Origin: a virus
Taxonomy: Duplodnaviria > Caudoviricetes
DNA: 31,129 nt
IMG/VR virus record: IMGVR_UViG_3300012682_000012
Span: 1-31,129 of that record
Strand: one strand, 5' to 3'
Part shown: positions 3,698-28,938 of the stretch, piece after piece
Layout: each line of letters opens with the position of its first letter
How positions within the stretch are numbered: position 1 is the stretch's first letter
Translations under genes and position numbers: made by a program
Notes under the pieces: model-generated
The model's database searches: none
Told to the model about the DNA's origin: nothing
What the model saw: the letters and a program-made list of their open reading frames with translations, nothing else

Positions 3698-3712
3698 GAT
3701 ATTTAACTGCCG

Positions 3713-3743
3713 ATATAGCAAGCACTATGTATGCTTGCTATAT
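3713..3743. repeat. 12-bp perfect inverted repeat after the MTase gene
   Basis: ATATAGCAAGCA-ctatgta-TGCTTGCTATAT. Confidence 0.75.
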
Positions 3744-3882
3744 GAAGACCTTACAGACATCCCCAGAACGTATAAGCCGCCGGGCATTCTGTCGGCCTTC
3801 ACAAGAAGCTATGAAGAACCGGGTACTGTTACCGGGGATACATGAGTGTCTTGTAGTAAGATGAGTATGTCAGGTTGTCACC

Positions 3883-3911
3883 GCCCTCTCTAATGTGAGA
3901 GGGCTTTTTTT
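3883..3911 (+). terminator. intrinsic terminator
   Basis: GCCCTCTC-taatgt-GAGAGGGC followed by T7. Confidence 0.85.
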
Positions 3912-4174
3912 GTATTCTAAACAGACCTTCTTTTCTCTTGCTAAGAAGGCCACCTTACAATCAACTGGCTCGGAAGTGGATTCTATTACTAGAGTCTTAC
4001 TATTCCTTATAGTCAGTGGTATTACAACGTCAGTACTACTAGGTAGTCCAAACGAAGTGCGGAAGATATTACAATATTTACTTGCCGCTAATTGTTAAAG
4101 TTCAGAGGGGGTCTATCCTCACTTCCTCACCAGAGCTTTATTACGATAAGCTAAAACGCTGTTTATACTTGTGG

Positions 4175-4361
4175 CCTTAGCAAATAAGCAAAGTAGAGGG
4201 AGGTATTAACCAATTTATAGCCTCGATAAAGGCGTTTTATCAGTTTATTGCAGGTAAGGGGTCATCTGTTATTCCGGCGGCCATTAACTACTCTAGGTGA
4301 GTGCTCGACTACCTCCGGCAGCTTACTTGCTACTGCCCTCTATATTGCTTACTTGTTAAGG
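4175..4361. ncRNA. candidate structured ncRNA
   Basis: 26-nt imperfect inverted repeat (4175-4200 / 4336-4361) enclosing further stems; no long ORF. Confidence 0.45.
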
Positions 4362-4413
4362 TGTGTACCGGCCTTTTAAAGTCTCCCGGTGGCTGTATAA
4401 AGCCTGACCAGAC

Positions 4414-4488
4414 TTGACGCAAGGCTTATATGTATACTACACTATAGGTAGGTTAAGAAGTCGGACACATCGAAAGATGTGTCTTTTT
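4414..4488 (+). ncRNA. candidate ~40-nt antisense sRNA with promoter and terminator
   Basis: TTGACG-N18-TACACT; GACACATC-GAAA-GATGTGTC-T5; opposing promoter TTGCTA-N17-TATAGT on the minus strand at 4572-4544. Confidence 0.55.
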
Positions 4489-4619
4489 CTATATGTAAGA
4501 CACTCACTCGCTAGTCTTGGGTTAAGAAGTCTAGCTATCAATCACTATACAGCTAACGCTCAAAACTAGCAACATCTGGTCACTCCCCCGCCCTTCTACC
4601 CCTTCTGAGGCTCTTAAAA

Positions 4620-4662
4620 TGCCTGTAGGTTACGTTTTTAGCCTATCCGTAACCTACAGGCA
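4620..4662. repeat. 15-bp perfect inverted repeat
   Basis: TGCCTGTAGGTTACG-N13-CGTAACCTACAGGCA. Confidence 0.85.
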
Positions 4663-4689
4663 AGGGCAGAAGTGATATGATACGGCTAT

Positions 4690-4848
4690 ATGAAGCGTAT
4701 CGTAGACGGCCTCTTAGTCCTTATCTGTGCAATTATGGGTAGCTACTCCTTGATTGATGGTCGGCTGTTCATAGCCCTTATATACTTCATCGTCGGGTTT
4801 CTGTTCTACATGCAGCTGGAACGTGGCGTGTTTAAGGACGGCAAGTAG
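4690..4848 (+). CDS. small two-TM membrane protein (52 aa), probably leaderless
   Basis: MKRIVDGLLVLICAIMGSYSLIDGRLFIALIYFIVGFLFYMQLERGVFKDGK; TGaTATGAT 8 nt before the ATG. Confidence 0.6.
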   Translation: MKRIVDGLLVLICAIMGSYSLIDGRLFIALIYFIVGFLFYMQLERGVFKDGK

Positions 4849-4869
4849 CTGTATACATAAATGTGAACA

Positions 4870-4915
4870 CAAAAAATCGCCCTTGTTGAAACCTTACGGT
4901 AGGGGCGATTGTTTT
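4870..4915. terminator. bidirectional terminator between convergent membrane-protein genes
   Basis: A-tract, AATCGCCC...GGGCGATT stem, T-tract. Confidence 0.65.
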
Positions 4916-4948
4916 GTTGAGGGCTACCACCGGTGAGTGGTATATCTA

Positions 4949-5164
4949 TTATACCTGACGATTGCCGGTGAAAAAACTAGCCAGACCTGCCAGTAAGGCA
5001 AGTACGGCTGCAAACTTGGTGATGATGTCAGCAACTCCGACTGCTTGTGGTACTTGCTTCAGAATGGCGGCAATTATAAGCAATATTACAAACACGCAGA
5101 CTCCGTAGAATACTGCCAGGATTATCTTACCTAGTAAGTTAGTCGGTGAAAAGAAATTGTTCAT
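4949..5164 (-). CDS. small two-TM membrane protein (71 aa)
   Basis: Two hydrophobic helices; GGAG SD upstream. Confidence 0.75.
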   Translation of the reverse strand: MNNFFSPTNLLGKIILAVFYGVCVFVILLIIAAILKQVPQAVGVADIITKFAAVLALLAGLASFFTGNRQV

Positions 5165-5206
5165 ATATAGTTACTCCGTTTAATTACTTATACAATAGCA
5201 CACATG

Positions 5207-5407
5207 AAAAACACCCCTATTGCTAGAGGTGTTAGTGAACTTTATTTCTTGCGATTAGGTTCGTATTTGTATTTGGCGATAACGGTATAGGTTTGAACCT
5301 AGCCACCATGTTTGTTAATACAGACAATCCCGATCCTATTGCGAGCTAAGATCAGTTTTTAATTGTTCGTAACCTTGTATCAGGTTGTCTATGCTTGGAG
5401 TATACCA
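5207..5407 (-). ncRNA. candidate ~190-nt structured sRNA unit
   Basis: TGGTATACT extended -10 (5407-5399); terminator at 5233-5207; stems with G-U pairs that work only on the minus strand. Confidence 0.5.
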
Positions 5408-5464
5408 CATAGTTCTTATGCTACAACCATAAAATATTCACATAGGTAGCGTATACTCAGGACT

Positions 5465-12432: not shown

Positions 12433-14520
12433 TTATCTAAGGGCGCTAATTAAATCTTCGGTATCAGTTTCAGCACTAGACATACCAGTACCGTCTGCAA
12501 TACTCTGCAAATAACCTCTTACGGTCGCTAGTTTTTGTGCTCTTACTGCTGGGCTATCACTGGCTTGAGGCAACTGTGCCCTGAACGTTCGCATTTCGTC
12601 TTTTGTTGCAGCTGCTCCGGTACGCATACGGACGATAGTATCGGCTATGTTATCAGCAGCAGCGTCAAATGAAGCAGTACCAAGGACGTTTTGACCTAGA
12701 CCGCCGAGTAGCCCCCTGCCAGCCACTACAGTGCCTTTAGGGACGCCGCCATTATTTATAATTGATTCAAGCGTGTTCAAGCTGTCTATACCGCTGTTAG
12801 CTGTAGCAAGCTGTTTAGCAGCTGTAGCACTAATTGGCTTAGCGGTAGGATTAGACATTGACTGTAGCTCCTGCATAGTGCTGACAACACCTAGATAGTC
12901 TTTCACGTCGTCCATATTGCCACCGTTAGCTAGTATCTGTTGTATGCTGGCGTTAGCGTTAGCAGGGTTGAATGGGTTACTGGCGTCAACCTCTGTTTCA
13001 GCATTAGCGTTATCATTGAAACTTTGAGATAATGAATCTATGGAAATATTAGGCGGCATAGTACTCGTATTAGTCGTATCACTAGTCTGCATACTGTTCC
13101 CTGATTGATTGCCTGTAAGGGCATTTACAAGGGGAGTTCCTACTGCTGTTCTGGCAGTCAATTTCTTTATACCTCCAAGATTGTCTAATCCCTGCATAGC
13201 TGTACCGGCAGTTTGACTTGTTACTCTTCCGGCTGCTCTGTTTGCTAGCTTATCAGCTCCCTTGGCAAGCATTGAACGCCCGGCACTGCTGTTAACCATC
13301 TGGGCGGTAGCACCAGCTGCTAATCCGGCAGGGCCACCACTAGCAGTCATAACGGCCGGTATAAGTCCAAACGGACTGCTTCCAGCACCAACACGACTCT
13401 TTTTATCTGCCTGTTCAAGTAATGACTTGAGATTGTTCAGTTCTTCTCCAAGATCTCCAACTTTGGTACTCTTATATCCAAGCTTAGACAGTCCAGCGTC
13501 AGCTTTTATACCTGCCTTGTCGGCGGCATCGTTAATGCTGCCCCTGAATCCTTTAGATACCCGGTTGAGTATTTCATTGGCATTACGACTAACCGTGTCG
13601 GTTGCTTCGTAGTTAACCCGTCCGGCAATCTCGCTTTTAACGGCATTTAGTTCTGTGGCTGATATATTATCGCCGAAATTATCGAGTACACCCTTAGCTT
13701 CTTTGAGTACGTCCTTAGCAAACGCTTGGCTAGCTGGAACCTTACTACCGGCTTCTTTGGAAATCTGTGCCTGTATCTGCTTATATACTTCAACTTTTGG
13801 TATAGTACCGATTGATTCAACTGCACCACTATAGGCACTGAAACCAGGCTTGAGTACTTGCTCGTCAGCTCCCTTGACGCCGTAGCTTGGTATCTTGAAA
13901 CGGCGGAGTGTTTCGCCGACTTCTTCGCCTGTACGGTTAGCGTGTTTGGTTGCAAATCCGCTTTCGTTCAGCCTCATACCACGCTGGGCTAGGCCATCAG
14001 CTAGGCCGTTCAGTTTATTAGCAACCCTACCCGGTGTCTTCTGGGCTGTTGCCTTGGTTCCACCGGCAAGGAGAGCATCAGTCAGTCCCTGTTTGCCAAC
14101 TGTCGCAGCTTTGGCTGCCGTACCTGCTCCCTTGAGTAGTCTAAGTGGCCCAGCTCCCATGACTCCAGAAATAGCACCCTCAGTCAATGCCGATTTGGCT
14201 GAGCCGCCTTCTCCTAAGAAGTTTTGATCGTCACGAACTTTATTCTCAATACCACGTCCGACAGTACCGCCACCGAAACCGCCGATCAATGCTCCGGCCA
14301 GTCCACCGATAGCCGTACCAAGTACAGGAACTACGGAACCAAGACCAGCACCAATAGCTGCACCACCTAAAGCACCACCAGTACCACCGGCTTCACTTAT
14401 AAAGCTCGTAAGTGAACCGCCACGGCCTTTTCTCTTACCACTCGTAGATGCTTGCCTCCTCGGAGTTTCAAAGTTTACAGGTTGATAATTGGCTGCTAAT
14501 GCGTTTAAGTCATATCCCAT
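12433..14520 (-). CDS. DNA ejection / internal virion protein (695 aa)
   Basis: Gly/Ala-rich and helical, with a glycine-zipper segment; located after the tail genes in a podovirus layout. Confidence 0.65.
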   Translation of the reverse strand: MGYDLNALAANYQPVNFETPRRQASTSGKRKGRGGSLTSFISEAGGTGGALGGAAIGAGLGSVVPVLGTAIGGLAGALIGGFGGGTVGRGIENKVRDDQNFLGEGGSAKSALTEGAISGVMGAGPLRLLKGAGTAAKAATVGKQGLTDALLAGGTKATAQKTPGRVANKLNGLADGLAQRGMRLNESGFATKHANRTGEEVGETLRRFKIPSYGVKGADEQVLKPGFSAYSGAVESIGTIPKVEVYKQIQAQISKEAGSKVPASQAFAKDVLKEAKGVLDNFGDNISATELNAVKSEIAGRVNYEATDTVSRNANEILNRVSKGFRGSINDAADKAGIKADAGLSKLGYKSTKVGDLGEELNNLKSLLEQADKKSRVGAGSSPFGLIPAVMTASGGPAGLAAGATAQMVNSSAGRSMLAKGADKLANRAAGRVTSQTAGTAMQGLDNLGGIKKLTARTAVGTPLVNALTGNQSGNSMQTSDTTNTSTMPPNISIDSLSQSFNDNANAETEVDASNPFNPANANASIQQILANGGNMDDVKDYLGVVSTMQELQSMSNPTAKPISATAAKQLATANSGIDSLNTLESIINNGGVPKGTVVAGRGLLGGLGQNVLGTASFDAAADNIADTIVRMRTGAAATKDEMRTFRAQLPQASDSPAVRAQKLATVRGYLQSIADGTGMSSAETDTEDLISALR

Positions 14521-14522
14521 AA

Positions 14523-15254
14523 TTAAAACCTCAACTTACTACCGTTAGATAACACACCAGCGTTAACCGTCTTGAATAGGTCAGGTCTGAGTTGCATATA
14601 CAGGTCAATTTTCGCCTTGTCCTTCTGATTGCCCCTGACAGCACTAGCCATCGTTGCTTTGTAATCGCTTTTAAGTTGAGCGTCACTTTGTTGTTGGACA
14701 CGACCAAATACATCATTATAAGCGGCTTGCTGTACTGGGTTAGTCTTTGGAGCCGCTTGCTGTTGTTGTCTCTGTTGTGGATTTCCACCGCCGAGTAATG
14801 ATGACAAGCTTGAACCACCGGAACTTGCCTCAGCCCTTGCCCGCTGTGCATCAGCACGAGCCAGAGCATCCTGTTCCCTTTGGTATTCCATAGCATCACG
14901 TTGCTGTTTGACGCCCATAGCCGTCTTACGTTGGTCGAGATTCACGTCATTAAGAGCGTCACCGAGTGATTGACGCTGTGAGATGTACTTACCTTTGAGT
15001 TGAGCAACTGCCGGTAAGAACTGTGTAGCGGTATACTTCTGCTGTTCGGCTATCGGAGCGCCACCGTAGAACGTACCACGGCCTATAGCACTCTGAGTAA
15101 TGCCGTCAAAGGCTTCTGTCTGTTGTCCCTTGAGTCCGGCTACATCAGCTTGTTCCTGTCCTTGTAATGCCCCGATACGGTCATTGATGGACTGTCGTGA
15201 TGGGTTATATGAGGCGTCCAGTTCTCGTATGATACCGTCTAAATCTGCAGCCAC
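14523..15254 (-). CDS. DNA ejection / internal virion protein (243 aa)
   Basis: Gln/Ala-rich coiled coil, RGTFYGG motif, gene position. Confidence 0.6.
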   Translation of the reverse strand: MAADLDGIIRELDASYNPSRQSINDRIGALQGQEQADVAGLKGQQTEAFDGITQSAIGRGTFYGGAPIAEQQKYTATQFLPAVAQLKGKYISQRQSLGDALNDVNLDQRKTAMGVKQQRDAMEYQREQDALARADAQRARAEASSGGSSLSSLLGGGNPQQRQQQQAAPKTNPVQQAAYNDVFGRVQQQSDAQLKSDYKATMASAVRGNQKDKAKIDLYMQLRPDLFKTVNAGVLSNGSKLRF

Positions 15255-15265
15255 GTTTTACATCA

Positions 15266-15298
15266 ATCGACTTACTCTGTATATGTGGGAGTATACCA
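15266..15298 (-). promoter_or_regulatory. conserved late promoter plus leader, copy 1
   Basis: TGGTATACT-N5-ATATACAGAGTAAGTCGAT on the minus strand. Confidence 0.8.
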
Positions 15299-15955: not shown

Positions 15956-17943
15956 TAGTTAAGCCTTTGAACCTGCAAGTTAATTACATGGCCGTCGAAC
16001 GAACAAGGTTCACGGGCAGCATCATGCTTGTACCGTAGCTGTAAGCGTCGCCATTCGCCTGGTATATTCGGAGCGTTGTCCATCGGGTTAATCTGCTGTG
16101 AGCCGCCGAAACGTGAGCCGGAATCGAAGGTCACGCCGGTATCGAAACGTACACCACCGCTAGCAAGTGATACGTCGCTGGTACTCGGTGCATCTGAGTA
16201 GTCCGTAGCATAGCCGACAGTGATACTGTAGCTACCTGTCACGCTGTCGAAATGAGGTCGGTATTCAGTTGCCCGTTTGTACTGGGCTGGACTGTCATAG
16301 TGGTTGTATGCCGTTCTCAGTTCGTAGGTCAGTGGCTCGCCCATATTGGTGTAGTCGTTGGTTATCTGTTCACTCAGCATTAACATACCGACACGGTTGG
16401 AAGCAGCTATCAGGTAGTTGTCATTACTGGCACTTGATGCATAGCTGAATCCGATGTACTGCCTTGTGTCGTCACTCTCACAGATGCCGTACAGGATGTT
16501 ATAGATCATGCACCGGCTGTTTACCGCTTGGCCGTTCGGCGTGTAGTAGATGTACAGGCGGTTGTTGTGGAGCTGTAACACGGTATTCTGTTTAGCAGTC
16601 AGCGCCATCCACCAGTTCAGGACAGGCGTCGTGATGTTGGTTTCCTCAGCACCGTTGAACCGGTATATGCCGTCGTCACTGGCAAGGAATACATAATCCT
16701 CGTCCCAGACAACTGACTCCTGGCTGAACGTACCTTTTTGGCCGATGGCGTTGTCCTGCTGGAACGTCGCCTTGCTGTAGCCGGAGTATATATACTTGTT
16801 GTTACGAGTATGAACGTAGATGCTACCCTGTAATTTGCTGAATGCCACGGCTGGATCGGCAGTTTTCGGGGCGGGGAAGTACTCGAAGTTGGTCGAATTG
16901 AACACGTCAAACTGTGTATAGCCCTCATCAGAGTAAAACGCCTTGTTCGGGTCGGCTGCTGATAGATAGAACATGTATACCTTATGCTGAATAATGGCGC
17001 TGGCTGCTTCCGGGGCGGTGGTTATCTGACTGGCCGTACTGGTTGCAAGGTCGTACTTCCGTGGCTTGCCGATGCCGTCAACGTATCTCAGGACATCATT
17101 GCTGAAATCAAACCGGACGTAGGTAGATAATGCAGAGATGCCGGTATCAACTGACGTAGCCACGCCGGTAGTCTCATTAACACTGTAGACTGTCGTACCG
17201 TGAGCTATAAAGGTGTAGCTAGTGCCGTTGGTACGTTTGAAACGTATTGTTCCTTTAGTACCTCCAGTCGTAGCAGTACTCAGTTTGACGTTGAAATCGA
17301 CGTTTGCCGCCGTCCACGTCACACCGCCGTCTGTACTCATTTTGCCTGTCGTCGTGTTGGTTGTGGTACTGATGGTGTAGCTGTTCGTACCACCAGCCTG
17401 GACATAGCCGACTACCCAGTACACGGTGGCATTGGTAATATCAGGGCAGGTAATCGAACGGGCTTTCAGGTACTGGAATACGGCAGTCAAACTGGACGCC
17501 GAGACAGTTGTTCGGACTAATTCAGTGCCAGGGCTTCCAGCGTTATCGGAATACAGGGCGTAGACAATCGTACCTGTTCCGCCGTTGCTGTTCCTGATGT
17601 TGGCTTCTAGTGCCGTCAGACGAGCCGTAGAGGTGGCAGTCAGCTTCTTAGCCCAGCGTATCGTATTACTGAAGTTGAATGTTCCGGGTACTGTGACACT
17701 GGCTTGCTGGACGTTGACGACTTCACCTATAGGGATAGACAGTAAATCATTGCCCTTTCGTGTGTCCCACTTGCCGACTTGGTTTTCTCTGGCATCCGTA
17801 ACATACCGCCATTTATTCGGTGATACGTCGTCGTTACTGGAGTTGGTATCAATCCCCTCAGTATACTGGTAGTCCTTGCTCTGGCTTTTACGAGTCGTGA
17901 CACTCGGTACTGCTACCCGGCGGCGAACGGCACTTCTGTTCAT
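15955..17943 (-). CDS. tail nozzle / tubular protein B-like (beta-propeller) with an inserted beta-sandwich domain
   Basis: 662 aa, beta-repeat character, follows the adaptor; inserted LYSDNAGSPGT...YWVV domain. Confidence 0.7.
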   Translation of the reverse strand: MNRSAVRRRVAVPSVTTRKSQSKDYQYTEGIDTNSSNDDVSPNKWRYVTDARENQVGKWDTRKGNDLLSIPIGEVVNVQQASVTVPGTFNFSNTIRWAKKLTATSTARLTALEANIRNSNGGTGTIVYALYSDNAGSPGTELVRTTVSASSLTAVFQYLKARSITCPDITNATVYWVVGYVQAGGTNSYTISTTTNTTTGKMSTDGGVTWTAANVDFNVKLSTATTGGTKGTIRFKRTNGTSYTFIAHGTTVYSVNETTGVATSVDTGISALSTYVRFDFSNDVLRYVDGIGKPRKYDLATSTASQITTAPEAASAIIQHKVYMFYLSAADPNKAFYSDEGYTQFDVFNSTNFEYFPAPKTADPAVAFSKLQGSIYVHTRNNKYIYSGYSKATFQQDNAIGQKGTFSQESVVWDEDYVFLASDDGIYRFNGAEETNITTPVLNWWMALTAKQNTVLQLHNNRLYIYYTPNGQAVNSRCMIYNILYGICESDDTRQYIGFSYASSASNDNYLIAASNRVGMLMLSEQITNDYTNMGEPLTYELRTAYNHYDSPAQYKRATEYRPHFDSVTGSYSITVGYATDYSDAPSTSDVSLASGGVRFDTGVTFDSGSRFGGSQQINPMDNAPNIPGEWRRLQLRYKHDAAREPCSFDGHVINLQVQRLN

Positions 17944-18596
17944 AATTCAATATACGTCCGGTTAGATGGCATGAATACCGGGCCATCCTCAATATTCATA
18001 GCATAGCGGATATTCATAGCCTCTAGGCCGTCTTCAAAGTCCTGTTTATAGGTTGCTGCTATATCATGGTTTCCCCGGTACTTCTCAGCTCTAGACACGG
18101 CATATAACTCAAGTAGCTCCCTAAAGGCTTCTGGTACGTCAGGTGTAGTACCAGCGGCTATAACTGTCGGTAGCTTCCGGTACTTTTGAGTATATGAGTA
18201 AGCTTTATCTATCGGACAGTTAAATACAACCATGTCGCCGTACTCAGTCCAGAACACTGGCATACCTGATTTTTCCGTCGTAGGATCGGGAAACTGTTCG
18301 TAAAACGTATCATTGTCTAAATAGGTGTCTCTATTCAGCTTGAAACGGGTAGCCGTATTTGCAGGGTCTACCAGTACGCCACTGATAGTGTTCTCATGGT
18401 TCGATTGCTGGGCTACGGTCGTCACACCTATCGTCAAGATCTGCGTAAATGAGGTTTGCCAGAACTTAAACCGGAAAGTATTAGCAACCGTGTTTTGACC
18501 ATAATTCAGATAGCGAAGTATACGAGTCGATGAGAAACTAGCGTCTTTTAAGTCATCCTGTACTGCTGATATAAGATCGGTTCCTGTGTATGGCAT
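17940..18596 (-). CDS. head-tail adaptor / tubular protein A-like
   Basis: 218 aa, ILRYLN and PDVPEAFRELLELYA motifs; gene position. Confidence 0.7.
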   Translation of the reverse strand: MPYTGTDLISAVQDDLKDASFSSTRILRYLNYGQNTVANTFRFKFWQTSFTQILTIGVTTVAQQSNHENTISGVLVDPANTATRFKLNRDTYLDNDTFYEQFPDPTTEKSGMPVFWTEYGDMVVFNCPIDKAYSYTQKYRKLPTVIAAGTTPDVPEAFRELLELYAVSRAEKYRGNHDIAATYKQDFEDGLEAMNIRYAMNIEDGPVFMPSNRTYIEL

Positions 18597-18608
18597 GATG
18601 TCTATCGA

Positions 18609-18637
18609 GACTTACTCTGTATATGGTCAGTATACCA
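18609..18637 (-). promoter_or_regulatory. conserved late promoter plus leader, copy 2
   Basis: TGGTATACT-N4-ATATACAGAGTAAGTC on the minus strand. Confidence 0.8.
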
Positions 18638-18866: not shown

Positions 18867-19081
18867 TGGACTTCGACAACCATCGTTACAGGCAACAGTA
18901 CAGTAACAGTAGTTCTAAAGAACTAAACAACAGTAACAGTACTGTACAGTTATCAACTAGTGAGGTATTTACAAACCTCACCGATCTTATAAAGCCAGAG
19001 GACAGTTATATGCCCTACTACTGCAAGCGATATAAAGACCTAGGCTATGAGCGGTTTATCTGGCATACTAGCCTTCTATAG
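18848..19081 (+). pseudogene. probably C-terminally truncated protein (replication-initiator-like N-terminus)
   Basis: S/N-rich linker encoded by ACAGTA repeats; runs into an unrelated GT2 fragment near 19055. Confidence 0.45.
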
Positions 19082-19676
19082 AGGTGATACTATCCGTACT
19101 TATATGTCGGGGTATATGAGTGAAACGTTCTTTGGTCGTGAGGTTAGATTCTCCGATGACTCCTTGATGACCCTGTATGCTTTGAACCACGGTAAGACGG
19201 TACAGCAAACTAACTCAATTGCCTTTAGTGCCGTACCGAATAAGTACAGCCATCACATCCGGCGGTACATTCGCTGGATGAGAGGTAGCTTTATCCGGAC
19301 ATGGTGGCGTTTTAAGTACTTGCCCCTGACGAGTTACATCTACTGGCTGCACTTATTCCGGTGGGTACAGTTTGCCCTATCTGCCGTAGCCAGCGTATAC
19401 CTGATTTACAGCGGTATCTTCCATAATCGGCAGTTGTTACCGTATCTGGTGTTAGTACCCGTCATAATCGCTTACGTGCAGTCTCTGAGGTATCTGATTA
19501 TTAGGCGATCAGATGAGTCGGTTGTGTCTCAGTTTGTAACGTTTCTGACCGCTCCTATTGCTATGATATGGCTACTCTGTGTTATGCGGTTCGTTAAGTA
19601 TTACGCTTACCTGACCGTGTTTAAGACTTCCTGGGGAACTCGAGGCAAGGTTGAAGTCGGAATGCAACAAAGTTAG
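19047..19676 (+). pseudogene. C-terminal half of a processive GT2 glycosyltransferase (hyaluronan synthase/NodC-like)
   Basis: LSGILAFYR, SDD, RYIRW (QxxRW position), TM helices, C-terminal WGTR; N-terminal DxD domain missing. Confidence 0.8.
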
Positions 19677-19804
19677 TGGGTAGTCAATACTATTATCGTG
19701 GGGCTAAGTGGGTTTCTACAACCTGACTTAGTGGCATACCGTCATGGGTAGCATAAAAATACAGGCTGTACGTGCCGAGCAGGACGCCGGTTATGAGGAG
19801 GAGG

Positions 19805-20404
19805 TTACGGAGTTTCATGTGGGGGTATGACATTTAATAAGGCAAACTGGCCGTGTAGTTCAAGGGCTTTACGGTTGTAGGCTTCGGCGGCTTGAAGAGA
19901 CGTATCATAGCGACCGAGGTGAATGTTTGATAATCGTGCTACGTACTTCTGTCGATTCTTATCATATGTCACACCTTTATAACCAGTTGTATTACTTTTC
20001 CTAATTCGTAAATTCCACTTATTCTGAGCTGAAGTGCAAGGCCTGAGATTACATATCCTATTATCAAGAGGGTCGTGATTTATATGATCTATTTCTAGTC
20101 CTTCAGGAAAATTCATAACGAATTGGTGCATAGTCAGATTATTATTTGTTGCTACATAACCAGTAGAAGTTTTATACCACCTAATTCTATCCAACATGGC
20201 ACATTCTCTGTCTACAATTGCATGCCCGTCCTTGCCATTTATACCTAGAGGAATCCTAGCAATATCACCATCTATGATAGCTGGTCGATAATCAAAGCGG
20301 GTTTCTATGATACCGCCGTACACTCTTGTCTGAGTATAGTGTCTATCACAATAATTTCTAGACTTGATTACCCTAGTACATTTTTCAGCGGTACATATAT
20401 TCAT
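19805..20404 (-). CDS. HNH-AP2 homing endonuclease
   Basis: C-x4-C...YCDRHY; IDHINHDPLDNRICNLR; TGYKGV...HLGRY...AAEAYN; start placed at ATG 20404 because TGaTATAAT lies 7 nt upstream. Confidence 0.9.
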   Translation of the reverse strand: MNICTAEKCTRVIKSRNYCDRHYTQTRVYGGIIETRFDYRPAIIDGDIARIPLGINGKDGHAIVDRECAMLDRIRWYKTSTGYVATNNNLTMHQFVMNFPEGLEIDHINHDPLDNRICNLRPCTSAQNKWNLRIRKSNTTGYKGVTYDKNRQKYVARLSNIHLGRYDTSLQAAEAYNRKALELHGQFALLNVIPPHETP

Positions 20405-20440
20405 AAGTACCATTATATCAGTTCCAAACAGTTATGACTA

Positions 20441-23228: not shown

Positions 23229-24023
23229 TTATCTCCAAATTACTGTTAAGTTACCAGCAGCCGTACCAGTCGTGGCAATCGTCAGGCCAGTTGTGAAACC
23301 AACTTCGAAACCGATAAATCCAGCGTTGGTTGGTTTGAGTATCGAGATGATAGTTCCTGAAGCAGCCGTATTGTCGTACAGCGTAGCTTGCCAAGATGAA
23401 CCGATGTCGCCAGTAACTACACCCCTTAGAACACCTGAGCCAGACTTAACGACTGTCGTAATCGGAGCAGCCGTAGTACCTGTTGAAATGTTGGTTGCGC
23501 TATGGCCGTAAGGGTAGGTAGTTACGGCGTCGTTTACTGGGTCTAGTCTGGTTTCAAGACTGGATTTCTGTGTGTCGGTGGCTTCGTTGAAGGCTTTGTC
23601 CGGGCCGATCACGACGACGGCAACGATATCACCGGATGCAAATACAGCCGTCATGTTAGCAAGTGTAAGTGTCAGTGTGCCGTTATTCCATACAATACTC
23701 GTCATTGGAAGTGAATCAACTACACCGGTAGAGCTGATGCGCTTGACGATTCCATTAGAGAAGTTTAGGACTGATAAGTTAGAAGACAGTACCGTGTTAG
23801 CGAAAGCGCTGAGTACGATGTTCTTCGTGCCGACTGTTGGCGTAGCTACAAAGTCGAGTGATAGGTTGGAGTAAGTGTTATTACCACCACCGACTGACGA
23901 GCTGGAACTTGAGCTAGGGCTAGTACCAGTACCGGAACCGCCAGAAGTTTTGAGAGTATTAGTCGCAGGATCGTACACAGCATTGAGTACTTCCTGTTGG
24001 CCGTATGAACCGCCTGTAGCCAT
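23229..24023 (-). CDS. putative virion structural protein (264 aa)
   Basis: T/S/G/V-rich and beta-rich; LYDNTAASG C-terminal domain. Confidence 0.65.
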   Translation of the reverse strand: MATGGSYGQQEVLNAVYDPATNTLKTSGGSGTGTSPSSSSSSSVGGGNNTYSNLSLDFVATPTVGTKNIVLSAFANTVLSSNLSVLNFSNGIVKRISSTGVVDSLPMTSIVWNNGTLTLTLANMTAVFASGDIVAVVVIGPDKAFNEATDTQKSSLETRLDPVNDAVTTYPYGHSATNISTGTTAAPITTVVKSGSGVLRGVVTGDIGSSWQATLYDNTAASGTIISILKPTNAGFIGFEVGFTTGLTIATTGTAAGNLTVIWR

Positions 24024-24034
24024 GTAAATATCTT

Positions 24035-24068
24035 AATCGACTTACTCTGTATATCCCGAAGTATACCA
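24035..24068 (-). promoter_or_regulatory. conserved late promoter plus leader, copy 3
   Basis: TGGTATACT-N5-ATATACAGAGTAAGTCGATT on the minus strand. Confidence 0.8.
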
Positions 24069-24602: not shown

Positions 24603-25448
24603 CTAGACGAATGCTATTTTAACTGCTGTCGTGTTACGAAGTTCTTTGACTCCGTAGATGATGTCTGTTCGTTGTTCAAATGCACCGGAACGGACGTTGT
24701 CCCAGCCAGTAACAGAAACGTCTTTTTGAATACCAAGAGCAACAGACTGCTTGTGGAACATGTAAGCAGTTCCAGCAGGGATGTTGTTTGATACACGAAC
24801 CTGGACTCCGTAGAGTGCCAGTACACGGCCAGATACGACCGGCTTACCGTTGGTGTCCATGATGTAATCGCTTGAACTGAAACGAGTCTCAGCCAGGATG
24901 TCGTTAAATCCATCAGGGTTGACGGCAAGTGTCACATTCTCCCAGTCCATGACATTGGATTCTCCAAGAACCTGAACAGCGTTCCGTATTTTTGAATCAG
25001 TAAGTCCTGTTGCTGCAGCCAAAATAGAGTAGCTTGCGCCACCGGCGGTGACTGCTGCTGCCAGAGCGGTAACGATATCCTGATCAACTGCATCTTTTAA
25101 GATGTAACCAGCGTCGGCTGTGTACTTCTGGCGAAGGTTGTACTTACTTTGAACTTCCAGCATCTTGTAGATCTGATGCGCTTTGTACTTCCATTTGTTG
25201 ATAGCCAGGGCGACGTTTGTTTCCGTAGCGGTATCAAACGTGACATCCGTACCTTGGGCGAGGTCACGGGCTGCACCGGAGTTGCTGAACGGTGTGATGT
25301 TCAGTGTCTGACCGAACTCTTTAACTTCGTCGTCGTAACGGTCAACCCGCTCGGCAAGTACCAGACTCTTTTTCAAGTAGTCAAGTGTATCGGTTCCCCA
25401 GAGGGTTGGTGAATAGGCACTGTGTGTGGTGGTAGTTGAACCAGCCAT
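24603..25448 (-). CDS. major capsid protein (HK97 fold, P22-coat-like)
   Basis: PTLWG N-arm, GQTLNI, GRVLALYGVQVRVSNN, C-terminal YGVKELR; follows the scaffold gene. Confidence 0.85.
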   Translation of the reverse strand: MAGSTTTTHSAYSPTLWGTDTLDYLKKSLVLAERVDRYDDEVKEFGQTLNITPFSNSGAARDLAQGTDVTFDTATETNVALAINKWKYKAHQIYKMLEVQSKYNLRQKYTADAGYILKDAVDQDIVTALAAAVTAGGASYSILAAATGLTDSKIRNAVQVLGESNVMDWENVTLAVNPDGFNDILAETRFSSSDYIMDTNGKPVVSGRVLALYGVQVRVSNNIPAGTAYMFHKQSVALGIQKDVSVTGWDNVRSGAFEQRTDIIYGVKELRNTTAVKIAFV

Positions 25449-25483: not shown

Positions 25484-26245
25484 TTAAAGCAAGCTCGCCA
25501 GTGTACTCTGTGTCTGTGGTGACGCCCTTTGTTCAGGTGTTAAGCCTGCATACCAAGCATCACGGGTTTCACGAGTAGGGCCACCCGTTGCCATTGCTGA
25601 CGACGAGGCGTTACCAGTAACTGCCTTTGCTTGCTGCTTATCAGCAACCTTCTGGAGGGCTTCACGGCCACCTTCTGTCTTCAAAGTGCTTTCCCGGCTA
25701 GGGTCAGCGCCTTTTGCCATATAGTACAGTTGTTCAACACTGAAGTAACCATTGTTGACGAGTAGTTTCAGGTTAGGGTCTTGTGTGACCATATCCGTCA
25801 TCTTGTCCTCGTACTGTTTAGCATCTGGATTATTATTCCAGAACTTCTCAACGTTACGTTCCATCTTCATAGCTTGCACTTCTTTGGCCAGTTGTGAAGT
25901 TTGTGGGTCGTCATTGTAAGTGTCGGCCACGTCACTCTGAGCTGGTTCAGTCAATGCGCTTTGGAGTTGGGCTTTTTCAGAGCTGGCTTGGTGCATCTGC
26001 TTTTCAGCGTTCCGGTACATCTCGGCAACTTTTGCAAGTGCTTCGGGTGAGGTCGGATCAATGCCCTTATTCTGTAACCATTCTAGATTTGGGTCAGTTG
26101 CCTGATTATCCGCTTCGTCTTGGCTGTCGGTTGGTGTTGTGGGTTCGGCTGGTTGGTTTTCCGCCGCTTGAGTGTCTACATCTGCCGGTTGTGTCGAATC
26201 GACGCCGGTATCAGTAGGCTCATTGGTTGTGGTACTTTCGTCCAT
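25484..26245 (-). CDS. capsid scaffolding protein
   Basis: Acidic disordered N-terminus, YRNAEK coiled coil, located before the capsid gene; AAGGAG SD. Confidence 0.75.
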   Translation of the reverse strand: MDESTTTNEPTDTGVDSTQPADVDTQAAENQPAEPTTPTDSQDEADNQATDPNLEWLQNKGIDPTSPEALAKVAEMYRNAEKQMHQASSEKAQLQSALTEPAQSDVADTYNDDPQTSQLAKEVQAMKMERNVEKFWNNNPDAKQYEDKMTDMVTQDPNLKLLVNNGYFSVEQLYYMAKGADPSRESTLKTEGGREALQKVADKQQAKAVTGNASSSAMATGGPTRETRDAWYAGLTPEQRASPQTQSTLASLL

Positions 26246-26279
26246 GAACCTGTCTCCTTTATAGATTGTTAAATTGGAA

Positions 26280-26394
26280 CTTCTAACCCGTAGATTTCAC
26301 TTAATTTACAGAGTAAGTAAACGGAGAGCCTTCTCTCCTAGCATAAATGCTTTCAAGTAATTGAAAATATATACGTGCTACTACGAGCTAGAAG
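26280..26394 (-). ncRNA. four-way-junction RNA element upstream of the scaffold gene
   Basis: 14-bp closing stem (2 G-U on the minus strand) enclosing three abutting hairpins at 26295-321, 26323-338 and 26339-380. Confidence 0.7.
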
Positions 26395-26472
26395 CTTGAT
26401 AAGCCGGGGGATGTCCCCGTAGCGACTGGTGAATAGTATGGTCGTACCACTCATCAGCCAATACGGAAGCAT

Positions 26473-26778
26473 CTAGGGCGATATACCGGCGGCGTCCCGT
26501 ATGTCCTGTTCAGCTTGACGTTCTGCCTCGAAGAAGCCACCAGCTTTAAGCTCTGCCGTTCCCATAATCAGGTTAATAACGTTCCGGTATGCCGTCGCCT
26601 CGACTACTTTAATAGCCTTAGCCTCCAGTCCCTCTGCTTTCTCAGCTTCGTCGTGGGTAGAAAAGTGCAATTCCTTGAGCTTCTTCATCAGATATAGGCC
26701 GTATTCCGTACCGATGAAGTCAGCTGCCAGTTCAGATATACGTTCCAGGTCGCTGGTTATTGTCCTGTCTGGTATCAT
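26473..26778 (-). CDS. small helical protein between portal and scaffold (101 aa)
   Basis: ATGA overlap with the portal gene; position typical of podoviruses. Confidence 0.75.
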   Translation of the reverse strand: MIPDRTITSDLERISELAADFIGTEYGLYLMKKLKELHFSTHDEAEKAEGLEAKAIKVVEATAYRNVINLIMGTAELKAGGFFEAERQAEQDIRDAAGISP

Positions 26779-28502
26779 CCGGCTATACCTTGGGGCATTT
26801 GCTCAGGTGCTTGTTGTTCCATAGCCAGTGCCTGATCTTCAGCTGGTATGTCTCCAGTCATAGGATCAGCCATAGCCGGGTCTGCCATTGGGTCAGCTTG
26901 TGCCATCTCAGCCGGGTCAGACTGTCCGATAATCTTGTCCATCTCTTCTTCACTGATATCAAACATCTTGGGATAAAGTATCTTCTTCGCTTGCCAGACG
27001 TTGTTGCTAGGGTCAGCAATGATAGCTGTAAAGGCTGCCTGTGCCGCTTGGCTCTCCTGAGCCTTGCCACTCTTAACACTAGCCTCCAGTCGTATCTGTG
27101 GCTCATAGGACTCATCGAACTGGCTCGGGTCAAAGGCTCGGAACTTCGGACCGTCCATGCTGCCGACTGGTACTAGTTGTTTATCCTTTATGAAATAGAG
27201 CATCATCTTATAGACGATCTTCGCCCGTTGTCTCAGCCCTTCCTTCTCAAGCATACGGACGTATATCTCGAATCGCTCGCCTGCTTGGTTGATCTGGGCT
27301 TTTATCTCAGTAGCGGTGGACTGTGAGGCACTAGTAACGCCCTTAACAACTTGGTCGCTGGCGGTAGCTTCCCGCATGTCATTTTTAATAAGGTTTGTCT
27401 CACTAAAGGCTGCACCGTCGATGCGTGGCTTGATGAGGTACTGCATACTACCAGCTTTGAACGGATAGCCGGTACTCGGTAGGTTCTTCATTTTCGGCAA
27501 CCAGTCAGCGTACATCGGGTCAAGTGTGAACTGAGGATTAAGGGCGTCAGTCACGGCGTCTGTCCGTTGGTTGGTGACATCGTTTAACAGTTCCTGGCTG
27601 TGTGCAATCGGATCAACAATCGCCTTGCCGTAGATGATCGATTCGTCAGCTATGAAACGATGTATGACGAGGCAGTGTATGCCAAGTACGTTCTTACGGT
27701 CTTCTATAGTGTTGCTACGGTTCATAATGGACTTGATCCGCTTACCGTCCCAGATTTCGATGACCTCTACCTGCTCTTTGTCGTTGCCGATAGAACCGAG
27801 CTGCATGTCCTTGAGTTCCTTGTCAGTCTGCTCAGAGCTTTGACCACCGCCGGTACTGACATCGAGGTTCTTGAATCGTGGTTTCATCTCGCCAGTCTCA
27901 GGATCAACCAGCTGTACCTTCTTAAGGGCTGCTATGGTCGTATGGTAGCGCCGTCCGGTGTAGTAGTTATCTGGATCAGTCCACAGCTGCATTGGGTCAG
28001 TCAGGCTAGGGTCGATGATGGCGTCACGGACGTTCAGGTTCATGCACCTCGGCTTGTCGCCGTCCATGTAGATCCACTCGGTGCTGGTGCCGTATAACAG
28101 ACCGCTCCGGACGCTCTTAATGGTCTTGAGATCCCAGTTATCACAGTCCCACCAGTAATCAAACTGAGCATTAAGGGCTTTGAGGTCTGGCTTCTTGCCG
28201 TCGTTCTCATAAGTAGACTGGATGTACTTGTACATGTCCTGTGGTACGAAGTCGATACTTGGACGGCCACTACATAGTGCTGCCGTTATAGTCTCAACCG
28301 TACCGAACGTCATAGGTACGAACGTATTAGTGATACCTTTATAGCCGACCATTGCCCGCTTGTTGTTATACAGCTTCCAGTTACGTTCCCAACGGGCATG
28401 ATGGTTGTTCTTGGCGTATTCCCAAGAGGCATTGAAACGGTCAAGTGTTGACTTGGCTGATTTCATTGTATGTGTGCCGCTATTGCTGTTCGTGTCTGAC
28501 AT
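26775..28502 (-). CDS. portal protein (P22-like)
   Basis: 575 aa; YGKAIV...Q-x2-LN...D, TATEI motifs; Q/M/A/P-rich tail; gene position. Confidence 0.85.
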   Translation of the reverse strand: MSDTNSNSGTHTMKSAKSTLDRFNASWEYAKNNHHARWERNWKLYNNKRAMVGYKGITNTFVPMTFGTVETITAALCSGRPSIDFVPQDMYKYIQSTYENDGKKPDLKALNAQFDYWWDCDNWDLKTIKSVRSGLLYGTSTEWIYMDGDKPRCMNLNVRDAIIDPSLTDPMQLWTDPDNYYTGRRYHTTIAALKKVQLVDPETGEMKPRFKNLDVSTGGGQSSEQTDKELKDMQLGSIGNDKEQVEVIEIWDGKRIKSIMNRSNTIEDRKNVLGIHCLVIHRFIADESIIYGKAIVDPIAHSQELLNDVTNQRTDAVTDALNPQFTLDPMYADWLPKMKNLPSTGYPFKAGSMQYLIKPRIDGAAFSETNLIKNDMREATASDQVVKGVTSASQSTATEIKAQINQAGERFEIYVRMLEKEGLRQRAKIVYKMMLYFIKDKQLVPVGSMDGPKFRAFDPSQFDESYEPQIRLEASVKSGKAQESQAAQAAFTAIIADPSNNVWQAKKILYPKMFDISEEEMDKIIGQSDPAEMAQADPMADPAMADPMTGDIPAEDQALAMEQQAPEQMPQGIAG

Positions 28503-28667
28503 GTAAAAGTATAATTGCTTACCCTAATTACTACGGATTATACAAGCCTGCAATGAAATAGCAAACACTTGTATACTTTTTATGGTTAATGTCCTCATGA
28601 GAACCAATCTGCTACTACTAAAAAGACGATGCCGAGTATCGTTAGTATGATGACCGCTCCGACTATC

Positions 28668-28874
28668 TCAAGCATGCTCTTCCTTGTGATTACAGGTACA
28701 GGTTCCGAGGTATTGAATAGTCGTCAGGTCTATAAGTTCCATGAGTAAGTCGTCTTCCAGCTCAGTCGGTGGATCAGGTAGTTCAGCTACGGCAGACATG
28801 AAGTCGTTATAGGTTTCCTCTACCGGACAGGCGACGACGGCTAAGGCTAGGCTGATAAGTGGGGCGAAGTCCAT
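28668..28874 (-). CDS. hypothetical protein (68 aa), probably leaderless
   Basis: TACACT 8 nt before ATG 28874; C-terminal CxCxH. Confidence 0.55.
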   Translation of the reverse strand: MDFAPLISLALAVVACPVEETYNDFMSAVAELPDPPTELEDDLLMELIDLTTIQYLGTCTCNHKEEHA

Positions 28875-28938
28875 TACTCGGTAGTGTACTATTACCCACA
28901 GCTGCTGTATAGCCAACAAAATACGAACAGCAGTGTAT

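Follow-up and report, generated by a model that had tools for sequence, protein, structure and literature searches.

The window, by which we mean the whole stretch of 31,129 nucleotides analysed here, is a 31-kb virus record that encodes a terminase, an SU10-type portal protein, a major capsid protein, an SU10 adaptor, internal-virion-like proteins and a CHAP endolysin. The phage is podovirus-like and probably has a saccharibacterium as its host, on evidence that is thin: the host assignment follows from a portal homolog (54% identity) on a 178-kb contig named Candidatus Saccharimonadales and from one scaffold-like Atlas cluster labelled Saccharimonadota, a label that comes from a single member. 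The names "scaffold" and "ejection protein" are inferred from gene position and weak leads. Atlas neighbours of the scaffold gene include T7 capsid assembly and scaffolding clusters, which we treat as a lead only, and gene 14523-15254 is called a putative ejection protein from its position alone. Gene 23229-24023 has no family match and is the first gene past the capsid-operon terminator at 24123-24087. The coordinates of the features are collected in Table 1.

Table 1. Predicted RNA, complementary leader sites and neighbouring genes in the window
Feature	Position	Strand	Remarks
Target site 3	15270..15281	(-)	SD-less leader of gene 14523-15254 (GTG start); -10 box 15295-15290
Target site 2	18610..18621	(-)	SD-less leader of SU10 adaptor gene 17940-18596; -10 box 18634-18629
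Target site 1	24040..24051	(-)	SD-less leader of gene 23229-24023; -10 box 24065-24060
Major capsid protein	24603..25448	(-)	phrog_267, PF19821
Putative scaffold gene	25484..26245	(-)	strong SD AAAGGAG 26260-26254; precedes capsid gene
Multi-branched (four-way-junction) RNA	26280..26394	(-)	intergenic, 5' of scaffold gene; predicted from fold z, homologs and covariation
P4 guide hairpin	26296..26322	(-)	guide ACUUACUCUGUA at 26318-26307, mostly in loop; guide co-varies with leaders
P3 hairpin, 6 bp	26323..26338	(-)	98% of cells paired; double changes in 4/4 pairs; A-U to C-G double change at 26336/26325 in X1
P2 arm, distal part A/U-rich	26339..26380	(-)	two alternative predicted registers
P1 5' strand	26381..26394	(-)	pairs with 26293-26280, 14 bp, two G-U; G-U to A-U at 26388 in X1
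Long hairpin A	26417..26466	(-)	upstream of junction RNA; followed by GGGG-N-CCCC hairpin 26418-26407
Small conserved ORF	26473..26778	(-)	between portal gene and RNA
SU10-type portal gene	26775..28502	(-)	PF23899; heads predicted transcript carrying the RNA
Weaker fourth site TTAGGGTAAGC	28517..28527	(-)	portal leader; duplex -10.3 kcal/mol; -10 box 28542-28537

Elsewhere in the window, positions 3700-5460 hold about 1.7 kb without a long ORF, with several hairpins with U tracts and promoter-like boxes. At 19047-20413, the virion cluster of the minus strand is broken up by a plus-strand 209-aa ORF and by an HNH-AP2 endonuclease gene; the 209-aa ORF has its own upstream region, with ACAGT repeats at about 18890-18930. 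A close relative, X1, joins across window positions 28633-28935 in its one contig, so that 301 bases are absent, including the small ORF 28668-28919.

The minus strand of 26270-26404 gave a folding energy of -43.6 kcal/mol (z -5.48), and none of 200 shuffled sequences was equally stable. An earlier note on this DNA had drawn the segment as a 14-bp closing stem with two G-U pairs, ending about 20 nt before the scaffold SD and enclosing three abutting hairpins with about 2 unpaired junction bases. The closing stem is present at 26280-26394(-), and we counted 19 nt from it to the AAAGGAG of the scaffold gene. The three abutting hairpins can also form, at -38.5 kcal/mol and with 3 unpaired junction bases, which is near the earlier figure; they are, however, 1.8 kcal/mol above the minimum-energy fold (-40.3 kcal/mol), in which an extra 3-bp helix closes the junction. 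The guide, as we call the 12 bases complementary to the leaders, had been placed partly in the loop of the last hairpin, and in the ensemble 7 of its 12 bases are more than 80% unpaired. A promoter scan of the window flagged no dedicated promoter upstream of the element. Rfam 15 at the gathering threshold gave no match in the window or in 8 related loci, phi29 pRNA and published motif families being among the models, and by E-value the segment 26200-26520 gave two chance-level matches only (E 1.1 and 7.2). Hairpin A and the GGGG-N-CCCC hairpin (together 26407-26466(-)) precede the junction RNA in other close-clade loci as well, and are possibly a processing site or a remnant of an older element.

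A string search of the window agrees with the earlier claim that the loop is the exact complement of a sequence common to three leaders: the 12-mer TACAGAGTAAGT occurs exactly at target sites 1 to 3 on the minus strand and at 26307-26318 on the plus strand, so that the minus-strand RNA carries its complement. Each leader copy, at the 5' end of a predicted transcript, lies 8-9 nt below an extended -10 box, TGGTATACT, and 13-16 nt above the start codon. When the upstream regions of 38 genes of the window were scored for duplex energy with the guide, only the three leaders reached about -17 kcal/mol; the next best were the region of gene 12433-14520 at -11.5 kcal/mol and the portal leader (Table 1). 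A cognate site is present in the portal leaders of most relatives. No cis partner was found for the guide of the window, or for the guides of most close-clade RNAs. Three further genes that lie next to promoters in the window appear to be leaderless. Chance as the origin of fold and match was ruled out by the exact 12-mer copies, the fold z and the cognate-versus-permuted test given below. On its one contig, relative X1 has an apparently different gene behind site 1, and an A-to-G change there keeps a G-U pair.

Relatives were gathered by capsid, portal, adaptor and DNA-pattern searches, and the same RNA was observed 5' of the scaffold gene in 15 related loci, including two variants (L003 and L011) and a near-identical pair (L004/L005). 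Fold z ranged from -3.0 to -6.5 in all 15 RNAs folded, L011 being left out. In a 14-row alignment, 88% of cells pair versus 70% in shuffles, and double changes occur in 14 of 18 pairs. Pairing by helix was 88% for P1, 93% for the short register of P2, 98% for P3 and 71% for P4; the long P2 register reached 73.5% in an alignment that misplaces two rows, and both registers remain candidates. The UA preceding P3 is invariant in 14 of 14 aligned RNAs. All 3 substitutions that separate the RNA of X1 (a single contig, depth 2.9) from that of the window keep pairing, and they comprise a double change in P3 and one change in P1 (Table 1). The fold, which the earlier note had proposed to follow through homologs, is thus kept with compensatory changes by the z in relatives, by the alignment and by X1. 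A four-way-junction covariance model run against 62 sources matched nothing beyond the 14 loci on which it had been trained, once in each genome; the L003 and L011 variants escaped it, as did the entire distant clade described below. Among the 14 stretches returned by a DNA pattern scan, 4 proved to be true RNAs, 2 of them new, and the others were tRNA or chance. The variants, at L003:1428-1516 and L011:558-680, have folds of their own; in L003 the loop is still CUACCC, and the leader that matches it has an AGGA of its own.

The RNA is retained where the capsid is of another family. In L027/L050, L040, L043, L044 and L045, the major capsid protein belongs to a family other than that of the window, with portal, scaffold and RNA kept, which suggests exchange of the capsid gene. 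In L001, the RNA and the leaders are kept though about 370 nt part the RNA from the scaffold start. The same locus (G001, classed as a provirus) has a GC-rich flank upstream of the terminase at L001:650-4480; by eye we take its genes to resemble those of actinobacterial mobile elements (excisionase-like, Lsr2-like), and the flank may be chimeric or come from the host.

Searching with the portal brought in a more distant set of 49 loci, which have 34-44% identity to the query. The intergenic region could be parsed in 46 of them, and most have a simpler version, a long stem around an A/U-rich linker and a C-rich loop. Examples of this stem before the scaffold gene, within L066-L114, lie at L072:6203-6338, L091:12136-12252 and L066:4010-4116; in one subgroup, the 5' arm of the stem is made of the last codons of the small post-portal ORF. 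In 12 of 22 loci, the distant-clade loop can pair in cis, over at least 8 pairs, with a segment above the scaffold SD, and its CCC core is common with the trans sites. Among close-clade loci, a cis partner was observed for hairpin A in 4 of 15 (L004/L005, L044 and G006), whose hairpin A loop can pair over 10-11 bp with the segment directly above the scaffold SD. In these loci, hairpin A has the cis partner and the four-way junction bears the trans guide. Together with the distant-clade loops, this suggests that the junction module arose as a specialised copy of an older pseudoknot.

To compare guides with leaders across phages, close-clade leaders were chosen by protein homology (portal, adaptor and putative ejection gene) and not by motif, giving 26 leaders from 13 phages, and 14 guides. 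Cognate duplexes had a mean energy of -15.0 kcal/mol, versus -10.9 ± 0.75 kcal/mol with permuted guides (p = 5e-5); with close sisters dropped and per-phage averages taken, the 11 phages gave p = 2e-5. The cognate guide was top-ranked for only 12 of the 26 leaders. Four leaders were without a register, namely the portal leaders of L002, L044 and G006 and the ejection leader of G006, the last extracted too short; the portal registers of G001 and G003 are poor, and one inner position of the G003 guide does not match its leaders. In front of the L044 and G006 portals is a long structured leader of a different kind. Portal leaders without the motif at L044:4600-4660 and L045:9870-9929 share a structured leader of 62-63 nt that starts with GCGCAAGACAGCCACTGA. 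Guide and leader read CACCAACCCCAA and TTGGGGTTGGTG in G006, and ACTTACTCTGTA and TACAGAGTAAGT in the window. The guide types GAGTAAGT, GGTTAAGTG, GGGTAAGTG, GGGTAGGTG, GGGTAGACG, GGGTAAACG and GGGTTGGTG fall on separate branches of the portal tree, four inner forks of which are unresolved. Of 26 distant-clade portal leaders, 22 remained after near-duplicate removal, and these gave a cognate mean of -15.7 versus -13.4 ± 0.55 with permuted guides (p = 5e-5), the cognate guide being top-ranked in only 3 of 22 with the crude 138-nt region used. Loop and leaders, which were expected to change together if they pair, therefore co-vary in 13 close-clade and 22 distant-clade phages.

The motif might alternatively be read at the level of DNA, as a protein operator, or an RNA-DNA contact affecting transcription, that lies in the initially transcribed region and has one inverted copy between the genes. 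Its distance to the -10 box, fixed at 9-15 nt, and a GGGTAG core that is nearly constant in much of the close clade would both fit such a site. We observed that departures from Watson-Crick pairing in the distant clade (219 positions) comprise 26 G-U, 7 A-C and 32 transversions (p = 0.0013 for G-U versus A-C). A double-stranded DNA operator would not predict this excess, which points to an RNA duplex. Over all 12 positions the close clade has no G-U excess (12 G-U, 13 A-C and 34 transversion mismatches), in keeping with a DNA site; at the inner nine positions there are 9 G-U versus 4 A-C, and three of the four A-C come from two poor registers. Behind a -10 box, 38 sites are mRNA-oriented versus 2 reversed, as counted with core patterns tailored per phage after the data had been viewed; one reversed site is itself a guide and the other is the reverse side of a forward site. 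The site has turned along with the putative ejection gene of G006, which runs opposite to the remaining virion genes. Moreover, the inverted copy always lies within the loop region of a covarying RNA fold, and uORFs preserve the spacing to a start codon (see below), both of which speak against a DNA-level site. The operator that the earlier note had named as its alternative is thus disfavoured by the G-U excess and the orientation, and we consider any DNA-level site very improbable. Pairing in trans between RNAs, the reading that the note had put forward, is backed by covariation of the fold, loop-leader co-variation, the distant-clade G-U excess and the mRNA-oriented sites; from these comparisons, guide and leaders very probably pair RNA to RNA in trans.

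The leaders also keep a regular geometry below the motif. Of 38 sites, 33 have the start of a long ORF 17-25 nt below the core. Two exceptions, in G006 and L044, have GTG uORFs of 12 and 11 codons, respectively, that start 21-22 nt below the motif; these uORFs lie at L064:6901-6970 (minus strand of G006) and L044:9386-9445, and each ends on the main ATG in a TAATG overlap. The other three exceptions are L042, with a hairpin in the spacer, one leader with its own AGGA at 32 nt, and one 35-codon ORF at 26 nt. Since the spacing to the start codon is kept, including by the uORFs, we favour control of translation initiation, and the predicted pairing likely acts at that step. Anti-SD energies averaged -0.9 kcal/mol for 25 close-clade motif leaders versus -8.0 kcal/mol for 13 scaffold leaders (p = 6e-7), as calculated with an E. 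coli-type anti-SD. From these energies, the host uses SDs and the close-clade motif leaders avoid them. These leaders are also too long for the leaderless class. A paper on CPR ribosomes gives anti-SD loss for some Parcubacteria and, in the text searched, does not state it for Saccharibacteria (PMC9297842).

Leaders that are neither leaderless nor SD-led favour activation over repression, and so does the proportional late output that coupling to the head-operon RNA would give from host-type promoters. Our main reading is that the element pairs in trans with the leaders of other virion operons and activates their translation, and we put its probability at about 0.5. In such a mechanism, the loop seed (CUACCC-type; CUUACUC in the window) would nucleate on a leader, and pairing would then open the 5' strand of the weak P4. 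The resulting duplex of 9-14 bp would end about 11-16 nt above the start codon, the normal place of the SD helix. The stacked P1-P3 together with the A/U-rich single strand would retain S1, a 30S subunit or a protein that recruits one of them. Made from host-type promoters of their own, the portal, adaptor, tail and ejection mRNAs would be translated only after, and in proportion to, the build-up of the head-operon RNA. We advance more tentatively, and as somewhat doubtful, a fuller version: a trans-acting ribosome-delivery RNA whose reprogrammable guide loop replaces the SD on SD-less late mRNAs, serving as a master switch for virion translation and descending from a pseudoknot that enhanced the scaffold gene in cis and survives in the distant clade. 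Two other routes to activation were rejected. Guide binding opens the initiation region by 2.7 kcal/mol versus 2.5 kcal/mol in shuffled leaders (24 leaders, p = 0.41), which leaves anti-antisense activation unsupported as a general rule; individual leaders that fold over the start include the G006 adaptor leader and that of L047. An SD supplied in trans by P3 was ruled out by a UAGGAG that is not kept (CCAAG in L002, GCAG in L004).

Against activation, the spacing and the uORF coupling are equally compatible with repression. The duplex, alone or with free scaffold or another phage protein, would then block the 30S subunit, and the low-copy portal, adaptor and ejection proteins would stay low while capsid and scaffold are high. 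All of the pairing and spacing evidence is compatible with this arrangement, and weak starts (GTG or TTG) at 12 of 26 leaders fit low output. Distant-clade target leaders often retain an AGGA SD, and the duplex there ends 1-2 nt above it; a duplex adjoining the SD is a geometry typical of repression. There are supporting precedents, in that the P22 scaffolding protein is described as implicated in its own translational autoregulation (10.1101/2022.12.13.520362) and T4 gp32 as repressing via a pseudoknot (PMC10690425). However, close-clade leaders have no SD and leave little to repress, and under repression by the head transcript the minor proteins would be expected to drop as capsid output rises. 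We judge a repressive role unlikely, though it is the strongest competitor of activation.

Two further readings leave initiation on the target mRNAs aside. Pairing might tether the late mRNAs to the head-operon mRNA or shield their 5' ends from nucleases, favouring co-localised synthesis and assembly or stability with no direct effect on initiation. The site starts about 3 nt past the predicted +1 (9-15 nt from -10 box to core), which can be likened to the 5'-end protection that FasX gives to ska, and every target is a virion gene. Yet the start-codon spacing is as tight as the -10-box spacing, and a uORF or hairpin restores it where the real gene is farther off; stability or tethering alone needs no such restoration, and we regard this reading as improbable. 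Information could also flow in reverse, with leaders binding the loop, remodelling the element and freeing a cis pseudoknot above the scaffold SD, so that scaffold and capsid synthesis would sense the other late transcripts. The distant-clade loops with cis partners and their shared CCC core would suit it, but the window and most close-clade RNAs offer the guide no cis partner, the RNA and leaders of L001 are kept despite the distance to the scaffold start, and the spacing of the leaders to their own start codons would go unexplained. We therefore hold reverse flow to be highly unlikely, and activation in trans remains our preferred reading.

Stoichiometry (few portal, adaptor and ejection subunits versus hundreds of capsid subunits) and late timing behind ordinary host promoters are usually credited to transcription activators or to the strength of ribosome-binding sites. 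The comparative evidence points to a head-operon RNA that addresses other virion mRNAs by base pairing, and it provides a natural series of guide and target variants. If it activates, the element would do in bacteria, and in trans, what viral translation enhancers do, and would amount to a compact translation switch that can be programmed; if a plain repressor, it would be a variant of the base-pairing regulatory RNAs and still a new RNA family. It would also give a view into translation in Saccharibacteria.

We found no description of the element in the literature searched, which lay outside subscription journals. The available text of a 2025 review of phage sRNAs includes no comparable late-gene element (PMC12197685), and a further report, as far as its accessible part goes, concerns other RNAs (10.64898/2026.07.01.735769). 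Motif and taxon terms were unmatched in the readable supplements of a catalogue of 10,006 viral candidate RNAs, where the element may be listed unannotated (PMC10690425). Overall, our comparisons argue for a real RNA system that is apparently undescribed, with strong comparative support for the predicted guide-leader pairing; activation and repression are graded separately above.

Judged by sequence, the element has the marks of a trans-acting base-pairing regulatory RNA, a seed complementary to several target mRNAs and compensatory change. SviR of PLE is described as a trans base-pairing sRNA that lowers translation of a putative structural gene (10.1101/2022.04.08.487710), and lambda PreS/LPR1 as another, with PreS enhancing dnaN initiation (10.1101/2024.10.31.621285). 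Like SviR and PreS, the element would be a phage-derived RNA with trans complementarity to several mRNAs, by predicted pairing. Those two, however, are stand-alone sRNAs with host or helper-phage targets, whereas the element is part of the head operon, is built on four covarying helices and matches the SD-less leaders of the phage's own virion operons at fixed spacing.

The element also resembles the control elements of T4 gene 32, of tisB, which has an S1-binding pseudoknot standby site according to the available text (PMC7708055), and of the P22 scaffold gene, in that a structured RNA lies directly above a ribosome-binding site, here that of the scaffold gene. In the distant clade, the RNA is predicted to form a pseudoknot, as pseudoknot operators do, with a linker rich in A and U. 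Those elements act only in cis, whereas the loop studied here is complementary to leaders in further operons as well, and the close clade, unlike cis pseudoknot operators, has a separate module for its trans targets. The phi29 pRNA, about 100-120 nt long, is a structured podovirus RNA; it has a multi-way junction and forms intermolecular pairs through its loops. The element shares with it a podovirus-type phage, a multi-way-junction RNA and intermolecular loop complementarity; it differs in having no Rfam match and in that its partners are mRNA leaders and not a second loop of the same RNA.

The closest analogue in how our favoured model would work is the 3' CITE of plant viruses, likewise a branched RNA with a loop complementary to 5' leaders, features that for the element come from fold, covariation and co-variation. 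A 3' CITE reaches distant 5' leaders by pairing through its loop, and it is described as bringing initiation factors or ribosomal subunits to them (PMC12656792). These are eukaryotic elements of plant (+)RNA viruses that lie in the 3' UTR, depend on eIF4 and act mainly in cis, whereas the element here lies between genes of a dsDNA bacteriophage that encodes terminase, portal and capsid proteins, and it would address several separate mRNAs. The element is not a member of the 3' CITEs, and we liken the two by mode of action alone.
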